From an uncultured virus (IMG/VR IMGVR_UViG_3300024999_000092) (lineage: Duplodnaviria > Heunggongvirae > Uroviricota > Caudoviricetes), in the IMG/VR virus record IMGVR_UViG_3300024999_000092: a stretch of 20,000 nt of DNA; one strand, 5' to 3'. Shown piece after piece: positions 3,884 through 17,977 of this stretch (its first letter is position 1; every line of letters starts with the position of its first letter). A program made the position numbers and the translations under genes. The notes beneath the pieces were generated by a model that searched no databases, had not been told where the DNA came from, and saw only the letters and a list, made by a program, of their open reading frames with translations.

Positions 3884-4903
3884 TTAATTAGCATCCTGAG
3901 CGATTAACCACTCATTATAACCTGCTTGACGTTCTTCTACGATGCCTCTCAGTCCTTCAAGGTTGTTATCATTAATAGACTTGATTATCATTTCAACCGC
4001 CTTGTCGTTTGCTTTTTCTAAGGAGTTTGTCTTACCCTTAGATGCTGTCCAAACCAAGACTGTAACCTCGTCATTAGTCAATCCCTTATTTAATCCGGCA
4101 GCATATACAGGATGAATATTCTCTAATTGTTCCTCTGGGTAATTATTACCCTGTGTTGCTAATGCCATTTCCTCGGCAATTTGCTGTTCTTTTGCCCTGT
4201 TTAGCATATCAATAAAGTCCTGCCCTGCCGCTTGAATCTGTAAAACATGCTCAGAGGGAGGTAATGCTTTGCGTTGATGCCGATTAATAAAGTCTGCCAT
4301 AGTCCCTTCAATATCTACCTGCAAGACAAAGACGGTTTTCTTAAACTGCTTACCATCGGTTATAATTGTTCCCTCATGCGGTTCGATTTTTAACTTAAGC
4401 GGAATAAAGGCTATTTTGCCGCCGGTCATGCCACGAATCATATCAAGACTACTGTTAATGTTAACTATCGAATTCCAACCGCCCGTAGTGGTCTGATAAA
4501 CCCTCATACTGCTTACCTTCGGGACAATGTAACTAAGTGTACCTTTCGGCTGGCAACCCTTACACCAAGGATCGTCAAGGTCACATGCTCGCTCAACCAT
4601 TTCCCCATCAATCATTGCGGTTCCGGTTTCTCCGTCGCCTTTACAATGAAGTCCAACCTTACCGTACTTCTTCATGTATTGAGGGAAAATTTGCTCTAAA
4701 TCGTTTACAGGAAAAATAATGTCTAATTCCTTTGGGTCTTGTCCATATATTGCGGCAACTTCCTCCGGTACTTTGAAATGGTCAAGTGCAACCGGATATT
4801 CAACTACTTTGCCGTTACGATTTTCTTTTTGCACCTTCTCACCTATCTTAATCTTGCCTTGTCTCGGTAGACGGCGGCGTTCTGATATTCCCTTAATTGC
4901 CAT
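3884..4903 (-). CDS. Gp3-like / recombination directionality factor-like DNA recombination protein
   Basis: N-terminal RLPRQGKIKIG...YPVALDHF, CKGDGE and C..C..C motifs, TGGWNSIVNI, IPLKLKI. Located in the replication/recombination operon. Confidence 0.7.
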   Translation of the reverse strand: MAIKGISERRRLPRQGKIKIGEKVQKENRNGKVVEYPVALDHFKVPEEVAAIYGQDPKELDIIFPVNDLEQIFPQYMKKYGKVGLHCKGDGETGTAMIDGEMVERACDLDDPWCKGCQPKGTLSYIVPKVSSMRVYQTTTGGWNSIVNINSSLDMIRGMTGGKIAFIPLKLKIEPHEGTIITDGKQFKKTVFVLQVDIEGTMADFINRHQRKALPPSEHVLQIQAAGQDFIDMLNRAKEQQIAEEMALATQGNNYPEEQLENIHPVYAAGLNKGLTNDEVTVLVWTASKGKTNSLEKANDKAVEMIIKSINDNNLEGLRGIVEERQAGYNEWLIAQDAN

Positions 4904-7466: not shown

Positions 7467-7700
7467 TTAATTAAGTAAATCGGAACTGGATTCAGTTTCT
7501 ATCATCAGATCAATAACATCACAATTCAAAGCGGCAGCAATACGCTGTAACGTATTGAGGCCAGGGTTAAGATTTTCTCCAACTTCTAAAAGACTAATTT
7601 TTTGTTGGGTAATGCCGGTTGCTTCGCTGAGTTCTCTTTGTAATAATCCCTGTTGTTTACGTCTCTTAGCAATATTTAACCCAACACGTTTCAAATCCAA
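7467..7700 (-). CDS. Cro-like XRE helix-turn-helix regulator
   Basis: IAKRRKQQGLLQRELSEATGITQQKISLLEVGENLNPGLNTLQRIAAALNC. First gene of the leftward operon, AAGGAGG RBS. Confidence 0.9.
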   Translation of the reverse strand: MDLKRVGLNIAKRRKQQGLLQRELSEATGITQQKISLLEVGENLNPGLNTLQRIAAALNCDVIDLMIETESSSDLLN

Positions 7701-7726: not shown

Positions 7727-7873
7727 AATACTGGAAACAGTATTTCTATGCAAAAAATTAAAACCGTTTTTCTATTACTATTATACACCTTTTACGGTGT
7801 ATGTCAACTGTATTAAGTAAATTTTTCTGTTAAATTGTCGTTGCCAAAAAATAATCTATATACTGAATTAAGT
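7727..7873. promoter_or_regulatory. CI/Cro switch region with sigma-A promoter and 12-bp operators
   Basis: Minus-strand TTGACA(7807-7802)-16bp-TATAAT(7785-7780). Operator-like ACTGGAAACAGT 7730-7741, ACCTTTTACGGT 7787-7798, ACTGTATTAAGT 7807-7818, ACTGAATTAAGT 7862-7873. Confidence 0.75.
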
Positions 7874-7910: not shown

Positions 7911-8315
7911 ATGGAGATTAAAGACAAACTGTATAATTTGAGGAATAACCGAGGTTTAAGCATGGATGATCTATCTCTAAAAACTATCACAAGCGAGTGT
8001 CCGAAGGCCGTATCAACCAACACCATTGCGGAAATTGAAAGCGGAAAAAGACAAAGTCCCGGAATAAAAGTGATCGAAAGACTTACTACCGCACTTAATG
8101 TATCACCTATGTACTTCTTTAGTGAAAACGCTCGTACTGTTTTTGACATTTCCGAGGTTAACGAGGTATTGACCGATGAAATTAAGCAAATGCTACTTGA
8201 TAAGGAAACCTTGCCATACCTGTTACTGGCTAAAAAGGCGTACACTGACCAAATACCGCCTGATATTGTCGAAGAATTACTGAAAACCATAACAAAGGTA
8301 AGAAATATGCAATAA
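7911..8315 (+). CDS. CI-like XRE family repressor (no S24 peptidase domain)
   Basis: LYNLRNNRGLSMDDLS...TIAEIESGKRQSPGIKVIERLTTALNVSPMYFF. Divergent from cro, 134 aa. Confidence 0.85.
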   Translation: MEIKDKLYNLRNNRGLSMDDLSLKTITSECPKAVSTNTIAEIESGKRQSPGIKVIERLTTALNVSPMYFFSENARTVFDISEVNEVLTDEIKQMLLDKETLPYLLLAKKAYTDQIPPDIVEELLKTITKVRNMQ

Positions 8316-8409: not shown

Positions 8410-8607
8410 ATGGGCATTATAGATATAGCAGACTTTGGCGGTTTTTTCCATTGTGTAGTTGACGGTAAAAACATAACTATCGACCAAAACATTACCCAAA
8501 AAGGAATTAAACAGGTTAATAAGATATTAACGTATAGTCAGGCGAAGCAGGATGTGTCCCTGGTTGATGCCAGGGAAGAATATGCCTGCGCCGGGTCAGC
8601 GAGATAA
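8410..8607 (+). CDS. Small hypothetical protein, candidate SOS-induced antirepressor
   Basis: 65-aa ORF with its own promoter, LexA-like box and terminator. The function is an inference. Confidence 0.55.
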   Translation: MGIIDIADFGGFFHCVVDGKNITIDQNITQKGIKQVNKILTYSQAKQDVSLVDAREEYACAGSAR

Positions 8608-8609
8608 AC

Positions 8610-8636
8610 AAAAACCCCTTCCATGTGGAGGGGTTT
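8610..8636. terminator. Intrinsic terminator-like hairpin
   Basis: AAACCCCTTCCA-TG-TGGAGGGGTTT right after the stop codon. Confidence 0.65.
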
Positions 8637-8647
8637 AATAAATTACA

Positions 8648-8676
8648 TTGCATTATTTACCGGGTAATGCTAAAAT
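8648..8676 (+). promoter_or_regulatory. Sigma-A promoter for the leader of the HTH/coiled-coil gene
   Basis: TTGCAT-17bp-TAAAAT with TGn extension. GCATTA...TAATGC inverted repeat in the spacer. Confidence 0.65.
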
Positions 8677-8687
8677 TATTGTCAATT

Positions 8688-8766
8688 AAACACGAAAGAC
8701 ACCCATCCGGCCAAGGTTGAAGGTGTCTTTATCCTAAAGCGGAGGCGTTCTCTGCTCGCTTTGCTA
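8688..8766 (-). ncRNA. Putative counter-transcribed antisense RNA (about 80 nt)
   Basis: Minus-strand TTGACA(8801-8796)-17bp-TAAAAT(8778-8773). Two hairpins: AAAGC...GCTTT 8736-8762 and AAAGACACC...GGTGTCTTT 8695-8730, the latter followed by a U-rich run on the minus strand. Confidence 0.6.
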
Positions 8767-8841
8767 TTACTTATTTTAAGCAAGGTTAGCCAAAATGTCA
8801 ATACTCTCCGCTATGGAAATTTTGGAGTGGAGGGAAAATTG

Positions 8842-9663
8842 ATGGGACAGGCACTTGCGAAGTTAGACGTTAGGGAAAATTCCACTAGAAAATATCTAGA
8901 ATTAATCGTTAGAAATAAGGAAAATACTATTAGAAAAAGCAATCATAATAATAATGATGATTATTATATAGATATTATTAAGAGAAAGAGTAATGCACTA
9001 AGAGAATATTTAGGTAAAACAAAAGAAAAGGTGAATGAACCAATGGAAAATTCTAATGGAAAAACGAAAAGTAAATATATTGGCGTTGATGAAGCTGCTG
9101 AGTACACCAACAAAACAACTAAGACTATTAGGAATTGGATTAAAGCAGGTATGCCGCACACTACAGTAAACGGAAAACACTTTATCAGCATAGAGACACT
9201 AGAAGTTTGGAAGGTAAGAAAGTACGAGAAAATAAAATTTGTACCGGAAAGTGCTAATGGAAAAGATAGCGAACCTGTGGATAACTCAGTTAGTGCGGAA
9301 ATTACATATACTGAAATTTATCAACCTAAAAATAATTCTCCGCAAAATCATCAACCCGTACAAATTATTGACGTTGGCCGCAACTATATGGCAGAGGTTG
9401 AAGAAAAAATAAGTTCGGCCTTATCTGAGCAGAGAGAATTTTTTACTGCTGCCTTGGCCAGCATTGAAAAGAAACAGGAACTAGAACGGCAGGAGAATAA
9501 GATCGTCATTGACACCATGACAAACGAAAATGCCCAACTCGTCAAAAAAGTTGAGCATCTTGTTAGTCGTGTTCAGCGTACCGAAGAATTTATCGAGTGT
9601 CAGGAGAAGAAGTTGCCTTGGTGGAATTTTGGCGGTAGAATGTTATCTCTTAAAAGACTTTGA
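8842..9663 (+). CDS. HTH (excisionase/MerR-like) + coiled-coil protein, Par/RacA/DUF536-like architecture
   Basis: IGVDEAAEYTNKTTKTIRNWIKAG HTH, C-terminal coiled coil, KKLPWWNF tail. ATG 8842 follows GGAGGG; alternative ATG 9043 follows AAGGTG. Confidence 0.65.
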   Translation: MGQALAKLDVRENSTRKYLELIVRNKENTIRKSNHNNNDDYYIDIIKRKSNALREYLGKTKEKVNEPMENSNGKTKSKYIGVDEAAEYTNKTTKTIRNWIKAGMPHTTVNGKHFISIETLEVWKVRKYEKIKFVPESANGKDSEPVDNSVSAEITYTEIYQPKNNSPQNHQPVQIIDVGRNYMAEVEEKISSALSEQREFFTAALASIEKKQELERQENKIVIDTMTNENAQLVKKVEHLVSRVQRTEEFIECQEKKLPWWNFGGRMLSLKRL

Positions 9664-12883: not shown

Positions 12884-13110
12884 TTGTTTTCCTCCTTGTG
12901 TTTATTCATTGACACAACTATTATATTTTTACATTTATCAATGTTGGATAAATAATCTTTGGTATTATTGTGCAGTTCTTTCAAAATAAAAAGATAGTCA
13001 AGAGAATCGCAAGAAGTTTTACCCTTAATATAGTTAAGATAAGACTTCCTAATATGATATTTAGATTTATAGTAAAAACTTAAAATATCATATCTGATAA
13101 TACTAAACAT
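12880..13110 (-). CDS. AT-rich hypothetical ORF (may be spurious)
   Basis: 76 aa with an upstream GGAGGG, but low complexity. Confidence 0.3.
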   Translation of the reverse strand: MFSIIRYDILSFYYKSKYHIRKSYLNYIKGKTSCDSLDYLFILKELHNNTKDYLSNIDKCKNIIVVSMNKHKEENN

Positions 13111-13355: not shown

Positions 13356-13421
13356 ATTATATCATTTAGTCAATAAACAGTCAACAACGTTATTGATATT
13401 ATGTTTAAAATATGGTATTAT
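13356..13421. promoter_or_regulatory. Divergent sigma-A promoters
   Basis: Minus strand: TTGACT(13384)-17bp-TATAAT(13361) with TGn. Plus strand: TTGATA(13393)-17bp-TATTAT(13416) with TGn. AGTCAA repeated at 13368 and 13379. Confidence 0.65.
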
Positions 13422-17398: not shown

Positions 17399-17458
17399 CC
17401 TGCAAACGGTATGAATCTACCGTAAACGGTTGTATTAACATTTACCGAGTGATATAAT
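17399..17458 (+). promoter_or_regulatory. Sigma-A promoter with paired operators (moron 1)
   Basis: TTGTAT(17430)-17bp-TATAAT(17453) with TGn. Operators CCTGCAAACGGT 17399 and ACCGTAAACGGT 17419. Confidence 0.7.
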
Positions 17459-17491
17459 TTAATGACTAATAGAGGACTATGGAGGGATAGA

Positions 17492-17977
17492 ATGGATACC
17501 AAGGATTTGATAGAAAAGTTATCCGAGAAAGTGCATGACGCATGGATGAAGGAAAAAGCGGCACAGGGTTTTCATGCACCAAACGATTGCCCTAATATGG
17601 GGAAATTAAGCACGGCAATGTGTAAAAAATGCCATACCGATATGTACCCCTACGAAGAATTGCCGGAAAATATAAAGGACTATGACCGCGTAACAGTTAA
17701 TGCTGTTTTACAGGCATTGGATGATTTGGGCATTAAGTTAAAGGAAAGCACCCAAAAAACAGGACTTAACTTCGGCCAGGCGTTAGAACAGGTGAAACAT
17801 GGTAAAGGTATGCGCTTACCTGCATGGCAATCTGACGTTGTTATTAGGGCGCAATATCCTGACGAAAACAGCAAAATGACCTCACCTTATTTATATGTCG
17901 AAAGTCGCTTTGGACGAGTGCCTTGGAAAGAAACGATGATCGAGTTATTTTCTGAACAATGGGAAATAGTTGACTAA
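17492..17977 (+). CDS. RyR-domain / Tad2 (DUF2829)-like fusion; putative anti-defence signal sponge
   Basis: N-half LSEKVHDAWMKEKAAQGF...HTDMYPYEELPENIKDYDR resembles a RyR repeat. C-half LNFGQALEQVKHGKGMRLPAW...SKMTSPYLYV...VPWKETMIELFSEQWEIVD resembles DUF2829. ATG 17492 after GGAGGG. Confidence 0.8.
   Translation: MDTKDLIEKLSEKVHDAWMKEKAAQGFHAPNDCPNMGKLSTAMCKKCHTDMYPYEELPENIKDYDRVTVNAVLQALDDLGIKLKESTQKTGLNFGQALEQVKHGKGMRLPAWQSDVVIRAQYPDENSKMTSPYLYVESRFGRVPWKETMIELFSEQWEIVD

Follow-up and report, generated by a model that had tools for sequence, protein, structure and literature searches.

A predicted antisense RNA and leader-refolding switch in the lysogeny module of an uncultured temperate phage

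Counter-transcript and pre-emptor switches are textbook material for the replication of Gram-positive plasmids, and some phages that infect Gram-negative bacteria, few in number, are known to use antisense RNAs. The sar RNA of P22, c4 of P1 and P7, and OOP of lambda are small antisense RNAs of temperate phages that hold down a regulator gene. The first and the last overlap the ribosome site or the 3' end of their targets, and c4 is processed from the same transcript as its target; to our knowledge none of the three works through a distant pre-emptor. Here we describe the leader at positions 8648-8844 of a 20,000-nucleotide (nt) stretch of DNA from an uncultured virus of the Caudoviricetes (IMG/VR record IMGVR_UViG_3300024999_000092), which we call the window, together with the gene that follows it, which encodes a protein of 273 amino acids (aa). 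With confidence somewhat better than even, we believe that the lysogeny module of this temperate phage, whose uncultured host probably belongs to the Bacillota, contains a switch made of a cis-antisense RNA and a refolding leader.

The closest described systems are copy-control circuits of plasmids, which we summarize here from excerpts of a single source. RNAI of pSK41 is about 83 nt long, has two stem-loops and is complementary to a stretch of the leader that lies about 100 nt ahead of the start site; once bound, it brings about a stem-loop in which the ribosome site is hidden, and transcription is not terminated (PMC5703833). In pT181 and pIP501 the antisense RNAs (RNAI and RNAIII respectively) act on a pre-emptor, a leader segment that is free to pair with the 5' arm of the final stem-loop as long as no antisense RNA has sequestered it (PMC5703833). 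The latter plasmid also has CopR, a helix-turn-helix (HTH) repressor at the sense promoter that relieves convergent transcription (PMC5703833).

As far as those excerpts go, the phage module is like pSK41 in the two stem-loops of its predicted counter-transcript and in a target that lies upstream of the ribosome site, 77 nt from the start site here as against about 100 nt. It differs in that it has no sequence or Rfam relation to pSK41, it does not act on a Rep protein, it belongs to a phage lysogeny module and not to a plasmid replicon, and its closed state is the equilibrium state even without the antisense RNA. It is like pT181 and pIP501, again on the excerpted account, in having a pre-emptor segment, and there is a palindrome in its sense promoter where pIP501 has a sense-promoter repressor. 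The final stem-loop of those two plasmids is a terminator, whereas the equivalent hairpin here (H4) is followed by AAAAUUGAUG, with no U-run, so the output is expected to be translational. Compared with sar, c4 and OOP, the target carries no antirepressor domain in Pfam or PHROGs, and Rfam gave no match at E <= 1 on either strand of the whole window, with the counter-transcript RNA families, sar and C4 included in the search. By analogy, the best reading is a counter-transcript and pre-emptor switch like those of pSK41 and pT181, with no sequence relation to either and no link to a rep gene. A limited literature search turned up no equivalent in phages of Firmicutes. What we have is plasmid-type logic in the lysogeny module of an uncultured phage, with natural variants that keep every part of the design and change its sequence. 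If confirmed, it would be a circuit reinvented for phage decision-making and a compact, modular, RNA-only translational gate for Bacillota, and it would point to an unstudied winged-helix coiled-coil protein whose amount the phage keeps under tight control.

Our comparisons use 12 distinct versions of the leader, the window included, taken from related environmental phage contigs with identical copies counted once. The relatives were gathered in three ways: through the downstream protein, through the upstream small open reading frame (ORF) in metagenome contigs, and through a 17-base anchor that contains no promoter base and that supplied two of the variants. They are close, mosaic relatives from few environmental samples, so the counts given below are counts of cells and not of independent events. 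The initial annotation of this DNA had proposed a search of related phages and plasmids for the genes that follow the leader. Among the phage contigs compared here, the same leader stands ahead of the same protein family in every variant.

The antisense promoter, P(-), scores 11 of 12 in a generic promoter scan, and the 20 kb contain just one other near-consensus promoter, which runs from 7807 to 7780. Its pattern, TTGACA-N16-18-TAWAAT, occurs 2 times in the window where 0.08 are expected, and a single shuffle out of 200 reached 2; the match exceeds chance. All twelve variants keep the -35 box TTGACA and the 17-nt spacing without change, while the -10 box is TAAAAT in ten and TAGAAT in two, a difference that falls at the least constrained position. 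Thirteen of the 17 columns of the spacer vary.

The sense promoter, P(+), has its expected start near 8683. The generic scan did not list it because its -35 box matches the consensus at only three of six positions. Its class, TTG-N17-TGnTAWRAT, nevertheless occurs 4 times in the window against 0.13 expected, a number that none of 200 shuffles reached, and the other matches include one at 17430, just upstream of the gene at 17462, and one at 13356 on the minus strand, upstream of the minus-strand block that begins at 13110. The elements TTG, TGn and TAnnAT stand at 17-nt spacing in 12/12 variants. In five of these the spacer and the tail of the -35 box are unrelated in sequence; one promoter has replaced another at the same place, which is good evidence that a promoter is needed there. 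With each transcript assumed to start 7 nt downstream of its -10 box, their overlap comes to 84 nt in the window and 84-87 nt in the relatives. The convergent promoter motifs of the initial annotation are confirmed, both classes far exceed their expected counts, and all the motifs it had listed, from the two promoters through AGCGGAG, CTCTCCGCT and AGTGGAGGG to the start codon, lie at the positions given in Table 1.

The palindrome in the spacer of P(+) has longer arms, GCATTAC-N7-GTAATGC, in relatives of the L045 and L052 type, and it may be an operator. The promoter spacer at 17430-17458, upstream of a gene for a Tad2-like protein, shares the motif TTTACCG(G/A)GT with the region of P(+). They may have an operator in common and be regulated together.

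The predicted minus-strand RNA folds into two hairpins, H2 and H1, which can also be drawn for the leader. Alignment of the whole overlap with MAFFT and RNAalifold misplaced indels and broke stems, and it was replaced by equal-length alignments of the hairpins. H1 was aligned ungapped as 36-mers in 10 distinct versions; L044 and L047 were omitted, as their H1 duplicates that of L043 and L045. Read on the minus strand, 100 of 100 cells are standard pairs. Read on the plus strand, 93 of 100 pair, and all 7 failures are A.C combinations that are G.U on the minus strand. The opposite case, failing on the minus strand and pairing on the plus strand, does not occur among the ten versions. We regard this bias as a modest, consistent sign of selection on the folding of a minus-strand RNA. 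Five of the ten pairs of H1 have changed on both sides, none of 500 shuffles reached either the paired fraction or the covariation score, and registers slid out of place were all at most 69% paired. For H2, in six distinct versions, minus-strand pairing holds in 46 of 47 cells, with compensatory change in two of the eight pairs; the one miss is the row of the window itself, which is shifted by an alignment gap. Both hairpins of the minus-strand RNA appear when its halves are folded separately, and both are recovered through covariation. The window holds no second copy of the target or antisense sequence, only chance matches of at most 13 nt, and the exact 36-mer of H1 is absent from viral contigs.

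The leader itself is built around a lock on the Shine-Dalgarno (SD) sequence and a helix that competes with it. Its 177-nt plus strand folds unusually stably (z -3.19; 2 of 200 shuffles as good). In the minimum free energy (MFE) fold, the SD GGAGGG and the ATG are closed in H4, for which the anti-SD (8804-8812) supplies the other arm. Full-length MFE folds have a paired SD in 12/12 variants, with a probability of being unpaired of 0.00-0.19. H4 alone is worth -12.3 to -17.3 kcal/mol in nine variants, and in one variant group a 12-nt insertion simply extends it. Among 27 start sites in the window, the site at ATG 8842 has the lowest predicted accessibility (0.17). A further hairpin, H3, is present in all nine folded variants despite their different spacer sequences, with no two-sided compensatory changes counted.

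The anti-SD has a second possible partner. In the window the duplex between the AGCGGAG arm and the CTCCGCT arm is worth -15.9 kcal/mol, which 4 of 2000 shuffled arms equalled, and the duplex between the anti-SD and the SD strand is worth -15.0 kcal/mol, equalled by 6 of 2000. Across the variants shuffled arms did as well as either duplex in 1-117 of 2000 trials. Over ten variants the rival helix ranges from -11.3 to -16.6 kcal/mol and the SD lock from -13.6 to -17.2 kcal/mol, so the two are matched in strength. When the transcript is cut before the SD, the rival helix (8738-8744 with 8806-8812) appears in the MFE of every variant, and both folds are thus present in 12/12. The types of its left and right arms partly match each other. 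The mutually exclusive pairings proposed at the outset are borne out by these figures, since both beat composition and both occur in all variants. The region covered by the antisense RNA, 8684-8765, lies wholly upstream of the SD (8829-8834) and of the start codon and does not overlap the SD.

Comparison of the variants gives good support to the architecture of a translational switch with an antisense RNA and a pre-emptor, and we infer that the minus-strand RNA is made and acts by refolding the leader. P(+) would start the messenger RNA (mRNA) near 8683. P(-) would start a non-coding RNA near 8765 that runs leftward through H2 and H1 and ends either after H1, at about 80 nt, or at 8638-8610, at about 160 nt. 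Four segments of the leader would do the work: A, the SD look-alike; B, its partner in H2; C, the anti-SD; and D, the SD strand. During synthesis of the mRNA, A would capture C in the long-range helix, and D would then emerge free and the gene would be translated. An antisense RNA bound to the 5' leader would cover A and B, leaving C free to close on D in H4, and translation would be blocked. An unbound leader would relax to A:B plus C:D, and because it would relax in this way when left alone, the open state would be a short time window. The switch must act during transcription, because the SD is closed at equilibrium with and without the antisense RNA.

Several points weigh against this mechanism. 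The most important is the equilibrium result: the SD is closed whether the antisense RNA is there or not (probability unpaired 0.00-0.18 when the leader is free and 0.00-0.10 when its 5' part is blocked), and forcing it open costs 0.7-12.7 kcal/mol. The antisense RNA alters the prediction for the nascent transcript only, and co-transcriptional folding was approximated by the MFE of truncated transcripts, a crude stand-in for kinetics. The long-range helix shows no clean two-sided compensatory change, and the recombinants L047 and L060 carry weaker arm combinations, at -12.4 and -11.3 kcal/mol. H2 is more stable on the plus strand in five of nine variants and on the minus strand in four. The 82-nt minus-strand RNA of the window is no more stable than its shuffles (z -0.68; 49 of 200 as good), and its whole-molecule MFE differs from the two-hairpin shape. 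On the minus strand H1 is followed by a weak U-run, one of similar quality follows it on the plus strand, and H1 could instead be an attenuator or a 5' stabilizer of the plus strand. The cell counts overstate the number of independent events, because the variants are close and mosaic and come from few samples. Finally, the sequencing runs that contain this stretch are five DNA runs from two studies, with no RNA run among them.

The weak U-run makes read-through from H1 to the hairpin at 8638-8610 plausible. The length of about 80 nt assumes termination after H1, and a form of about 160 nt that ends at this terminator is equally possible. In the fold of 8765 to 8598 the minus strand has UUUUUGUUUAU just after the hairpin, compared with UUUAAUAAAUU on the plus strand, and the 168-nt minus-strand form has a z of -2.41. 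At the same position L060, L093 and L155 have terminators with other stems and the same better U-run on the minus strand. Of the two-hairpin counter-transcript of about 80 nt that had been predicted, then, the covarying hairpins stand, and the fold and stability of the RNA in the window do not support it and its 3' end may lie at about 80 or about 160 nt. The comparison with pSK41 that accompanied that prediction fares in the same way: the conserved counter-promoter, the covarying hairpins, the SD lock and the rival helix are all there, and an SD switch at equilibrium is not. Cofolding had been suggested as a check, and its outcome is likewise split, since the SD is closed with and without the antisense RNA at equilibrium and the anti-SD of the nascent transcript is left unpaired when the antisense RNA is added.

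It is possible that the facing promoters matter more than the RNA. Transcriptional interference could be the main mechanism, with a strong P(-) and a weaker P(+) about 84 bp apart, polymerases colliding or occluding one another, and the short RNA a by-product. The facing arrangement with its overlap of 84-87 bp speaks for this, as does the difference in strength between P(-), at 11 of 12 consensus positions, and P(+), with 3 of 6 in its -35 box. The palindrome in the spacer of P(+) could let a repressor shift the balance, as CopR does in pIP501 on the excerpted account (PMC5703833). We still consider interference unlikely to be the main mechanism. It leaves the covariation of H1 and H2, the G.U bias toward the minus strand, the conserved SD lock and the matched pre-emptor without an explanation. 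It could, of course, operate alongside the RNA mechanism.

A second alternative accepts the antisense RNA and changes what it does. The duplex would trigger processing or decay of the 5' end of the mRNA, for example by RNase III, and the SD hairpin would be a separate, constitutive brake. Cofolding predicts a complete duplex of high stability, gaining -116.9 kcal/mol, and the equilibrium folds show no antisense-dependent change at the SD. H1, at the 5' end of the mRNA, could be a stabilizer that the duplex removes. We give this no better chance than interference, and we doubt it for a similar reason: it does not explain the SD look-alike pre-emptor, nor why the nascent MFE has the A:C helix in 12/12 variants.

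Least probable of all is a structured cis-acting 5' untranslated region with no functional antisense RNA, working by protein autoregulation, temperature sensing or slow self-closing, with the bases of P(-) kept for the plus-strand fold; the plus-strand leader is indeed significantly structured (z -3.19) where the short minus-strand RNA does not stand out (z -0.68), the loop of H3 contains the -10 box of P(-), part of its -35 box can pair with the region of the start codon, and the SD lock needs no antisense RNA at equilibrium, yet both hexamers of P(-) (apart from TAAAAT to TAGAAT in the -10 box) and the exact 17-nt spacing are kept in 12/12 variants against a spacer that varies in 13 of 17 columns, the 20 kb contain just two such promoters, all 7 non-standard plus-strand cells of H1 become standard when read on the minus strand, and it is on the minus strand that the terminators to the left have the better U-run.

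Returning to the antisense and refolding switch, its purpose would be to silence the protein once lysogeny is established, or when the phage dose is high, and to allow a burst on first entry. That the switch senses dosage is something we only infer. A more specific proposal, which we hold to be improbable, is a sensor of phage dose and immunity built on plasmid copy-control logic, in which constitutive antisense RNA from the resident prophage silences a RacA/Par-like DNA-anchoring protein and a newly arriving genome briefly translates it. If this were true, the freely recombining variants of H1 and H2 would be specificity types, like incompatibility groups or the heteroimmunity of P1 and P7, and the protein could tether or partition an episomal prophage.

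Two other ideas about the leader were tried and rejected. An ATG at 8795, within the invariant CCAAAATGTCAA, opens a frame of 15 codons whose TGA overlaps the main ATG. A leader peptide or translational coupling at this ATG does not hold up, since in nine variants the frame has 9-35 codons, can occupy each of the three reading frames or run in frame into the gene, and L093 has no ATG at this position. The frame is probably a by-product of the -35 box of P(-). A type I toxin-antitoxin system was also rejected; the target is 273 aa long and not a small toxic peptide, and the only short frame in the leader is this inconsistent one.

Table 1. Features of the switch and of its surroundings, in coordinates of the 20,000-nt window
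Feature	Position	Strand	Description
P(+), promoter of leader and gene	8648-8676	+	TTGCAT 8648-8653, 17-nt spacer ending TGc, TAAAAT 8671-8676; extended -10
Palindrome in P(+) spacer	8650..8670		GCATTA-N9-TAATGC; candidate operator
Predicted cis-antisense RNA, short form	8684..8765	-	5' AGCAAAGC..., H2, H1, U-rich tail; position from P(-), folds and covariation
Hairpin H1	8695..8730		10-bp stem, 16-nt loop; in both leader and antisense RNA
Hairpin H2	8737..8757		plus strand AGCGGAG 8738-8744 pairs with CTCTGCT 8750-8756 (segment B)
SD look-alike pre-emptor (segment A)	8738..8745	+	AGCGGAGG, with AGCGGAG 8738-8744; can hold the anti-SD in a long-range helix
Hairpin H3	8758..8786	+	8758-8765 with 8779-8786; the -10 box and spacer of P(-) make up its loop and 3' arm
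P(-), antisense promoter	8773..8801	-	TTGACA-17-TAAAAT; -35 8801->8796, -10 8778->8773; from scan and conservation
Anti-SD (segment C)	8804..8812	+	CTCTCCGCT, with CTCCGCT 8806-8812; pivot segment of the switch
SD strand (segment D) and start codon	8826..8844	+	AGTGGAGGG 8826-8834 (GGAGGG 8829-8834) and ATG 8842, closed in H4
Regulated gene	8842..9663	+	273 aa; N-terminal helices, winged HTH, disordered linker, 80-residue helix, short C-terminal helix with PWW
Bidirectional terminator hairpin	8610..8638		after the small ORF; likely 3' end of the ~160-nt minus-strand form
Small ORF	8410-8607	+	65 aa; between CI-like gene and terminator
Divergent XRE regulator pair	7467-7700 and 7911-8315	- and +	Cro-like (-) and CI-like (+)
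Gp3-like protein	3884-4903		recombination directionality factor
Endolysin	window		SLH domain; small membrane protein beside the endolysin gene
Other phage genes	window		FtsK-like ATPase; Replic_Relax protein; YopX proteins; HNH endonuclease; Tad2-like protein; helicase; methylase

The regulated protein scores below the cut-offs of the families it most resembles, at 21.1 bits against 27 for HTH_17 in Pfam (E 3.7e-4) and at 22.3 against 28.8 for TIGR01764 in NCBIfam. It matches phrog_66 in PHROGs with an E of 1.7e-7, and several of its homologues carry PF12728 or PF00376. The structure model has an overall predicted local distance difference test score (pLDDT) of 66.5 and a predicted template modelling score of 0.23, and it confidently places a winged HTH of the MerR/excisionase kind at residues 79-125 with a pLDDT of 85-88, followed by the linker, the long helix (178-257) and the short terminal helix. 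We believe the protein is a divergent member of the HTH_17 and MerR/excisionase winged-helix group by its modelled fold and not by score, because the scores fall short while homologues carry PF12728 or PF00376 and the model shows the fold. The HTH and coiled-coil target of the initial annotation is upheld in the model by this domain and the 80-residue helix.

The function of the protein is harder to read. In RacA and in Par of pSK1, proteins of DNA anchoring and partition, a winged HTH is joined to a coiled coil, and the modelled protein is similar in having a winged HTH followed by its long helix. The fold matches are weak (E at least 0.012) and cover the HTH only, about 48 residues, and Xis, TraN, BldC and the small terminase score like RacA and pSK1 Par. 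The Atlas gave HTH_17/MerR clusters and a RacA cluster at 0.84, below the bar of 0.9. A role in DNA anchoring or partition, suggested by the model, is a lead and nothing more. The maintenance factor that had been proposed for this gene survives as that architectural lead, from weak matches to the DNA-binding domains of RacA and pSK1 Par, and no function follows from it. Pfam, PHROGs, PADLOC and NCBIfam gave no antirepressor, Rep or defence family for the protein, and nothing decisive came from PADLOC or NCBIfam for it or its neighbours.

All 17 homologues are unnamed proteins from metagenomes. They are mosaic, with a MGQA start, an Asn-rich stretch, the coiled coil and the C-terminal PWW in common. 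Relatives have exchanged the HTH domain and the first half of the coiled coil, and the N-terminal 60 residues, the leader and the PWW are kept. In L040, at about 1640-1700, two tandem start modules, each with an SD, a start codon and GGACA, look like a scar of recombination between two N-terminal variants of the regulated gene.

By its gene content, and by domain and family searches, the window is a temperate-phage region and not a plasmid. The switch lies in a plus-strand island whose order is the CI-like gene, the 65-aa ORF, the terminator hairpin, the leader (8648-8844) and the 273-aa gene, and minus-strand genes converge on this island from the right. It had been suggested that the leader might be a repurposed rep leader. 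We find no case for this: neither the leader nor the protein has a match in a plasmid collection, GenBank phages gave no blastn match to the region and no tblastn match to the protein, and the surroundings are those of a phage lysogeny module. Relatives of the FtsK-like protein are all distant, at less than 31% identity and mostly in Bacillus phages. Two scans of reference genomes, with alignments of the small ORF and the CI-like protein, found no relative, and a scan of the window for transfer RNAs found nothing. In three related records (G001-G003, about 84% completeness) no large-serine-recombinase domain was found, and one of the three has a tyrosine recombinase.

The small ORF upstream of the terminator is conserved at 65-68 aa with invariant Cys residues, three relatives being 57-68% identical to the copy in the window, and has no family match in Pfam, PHROGs, PADLOC or NCBIfam. 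L060 has another small gene in this position. The other near-consensus promoter of the window, TTGACA-16-TATAAT at 7807->7780 on the minus strand, is an early promoter that faces the Cro-like gene. A perfect palindrome, ATACACC-N6-GGTGTAT, lies within its spacer and a second, AATACTG-N4-CAGTATT, lies at 7727; these are probably the operators of the main switch. The protein at 17462-17977 combines a RyR domain with a Tad2-like (Thoeris anti-defence) domain, and its gene stands on the plus strand amid minus-strand genes, with an extended -10 promoter of its own at 17430-17458.

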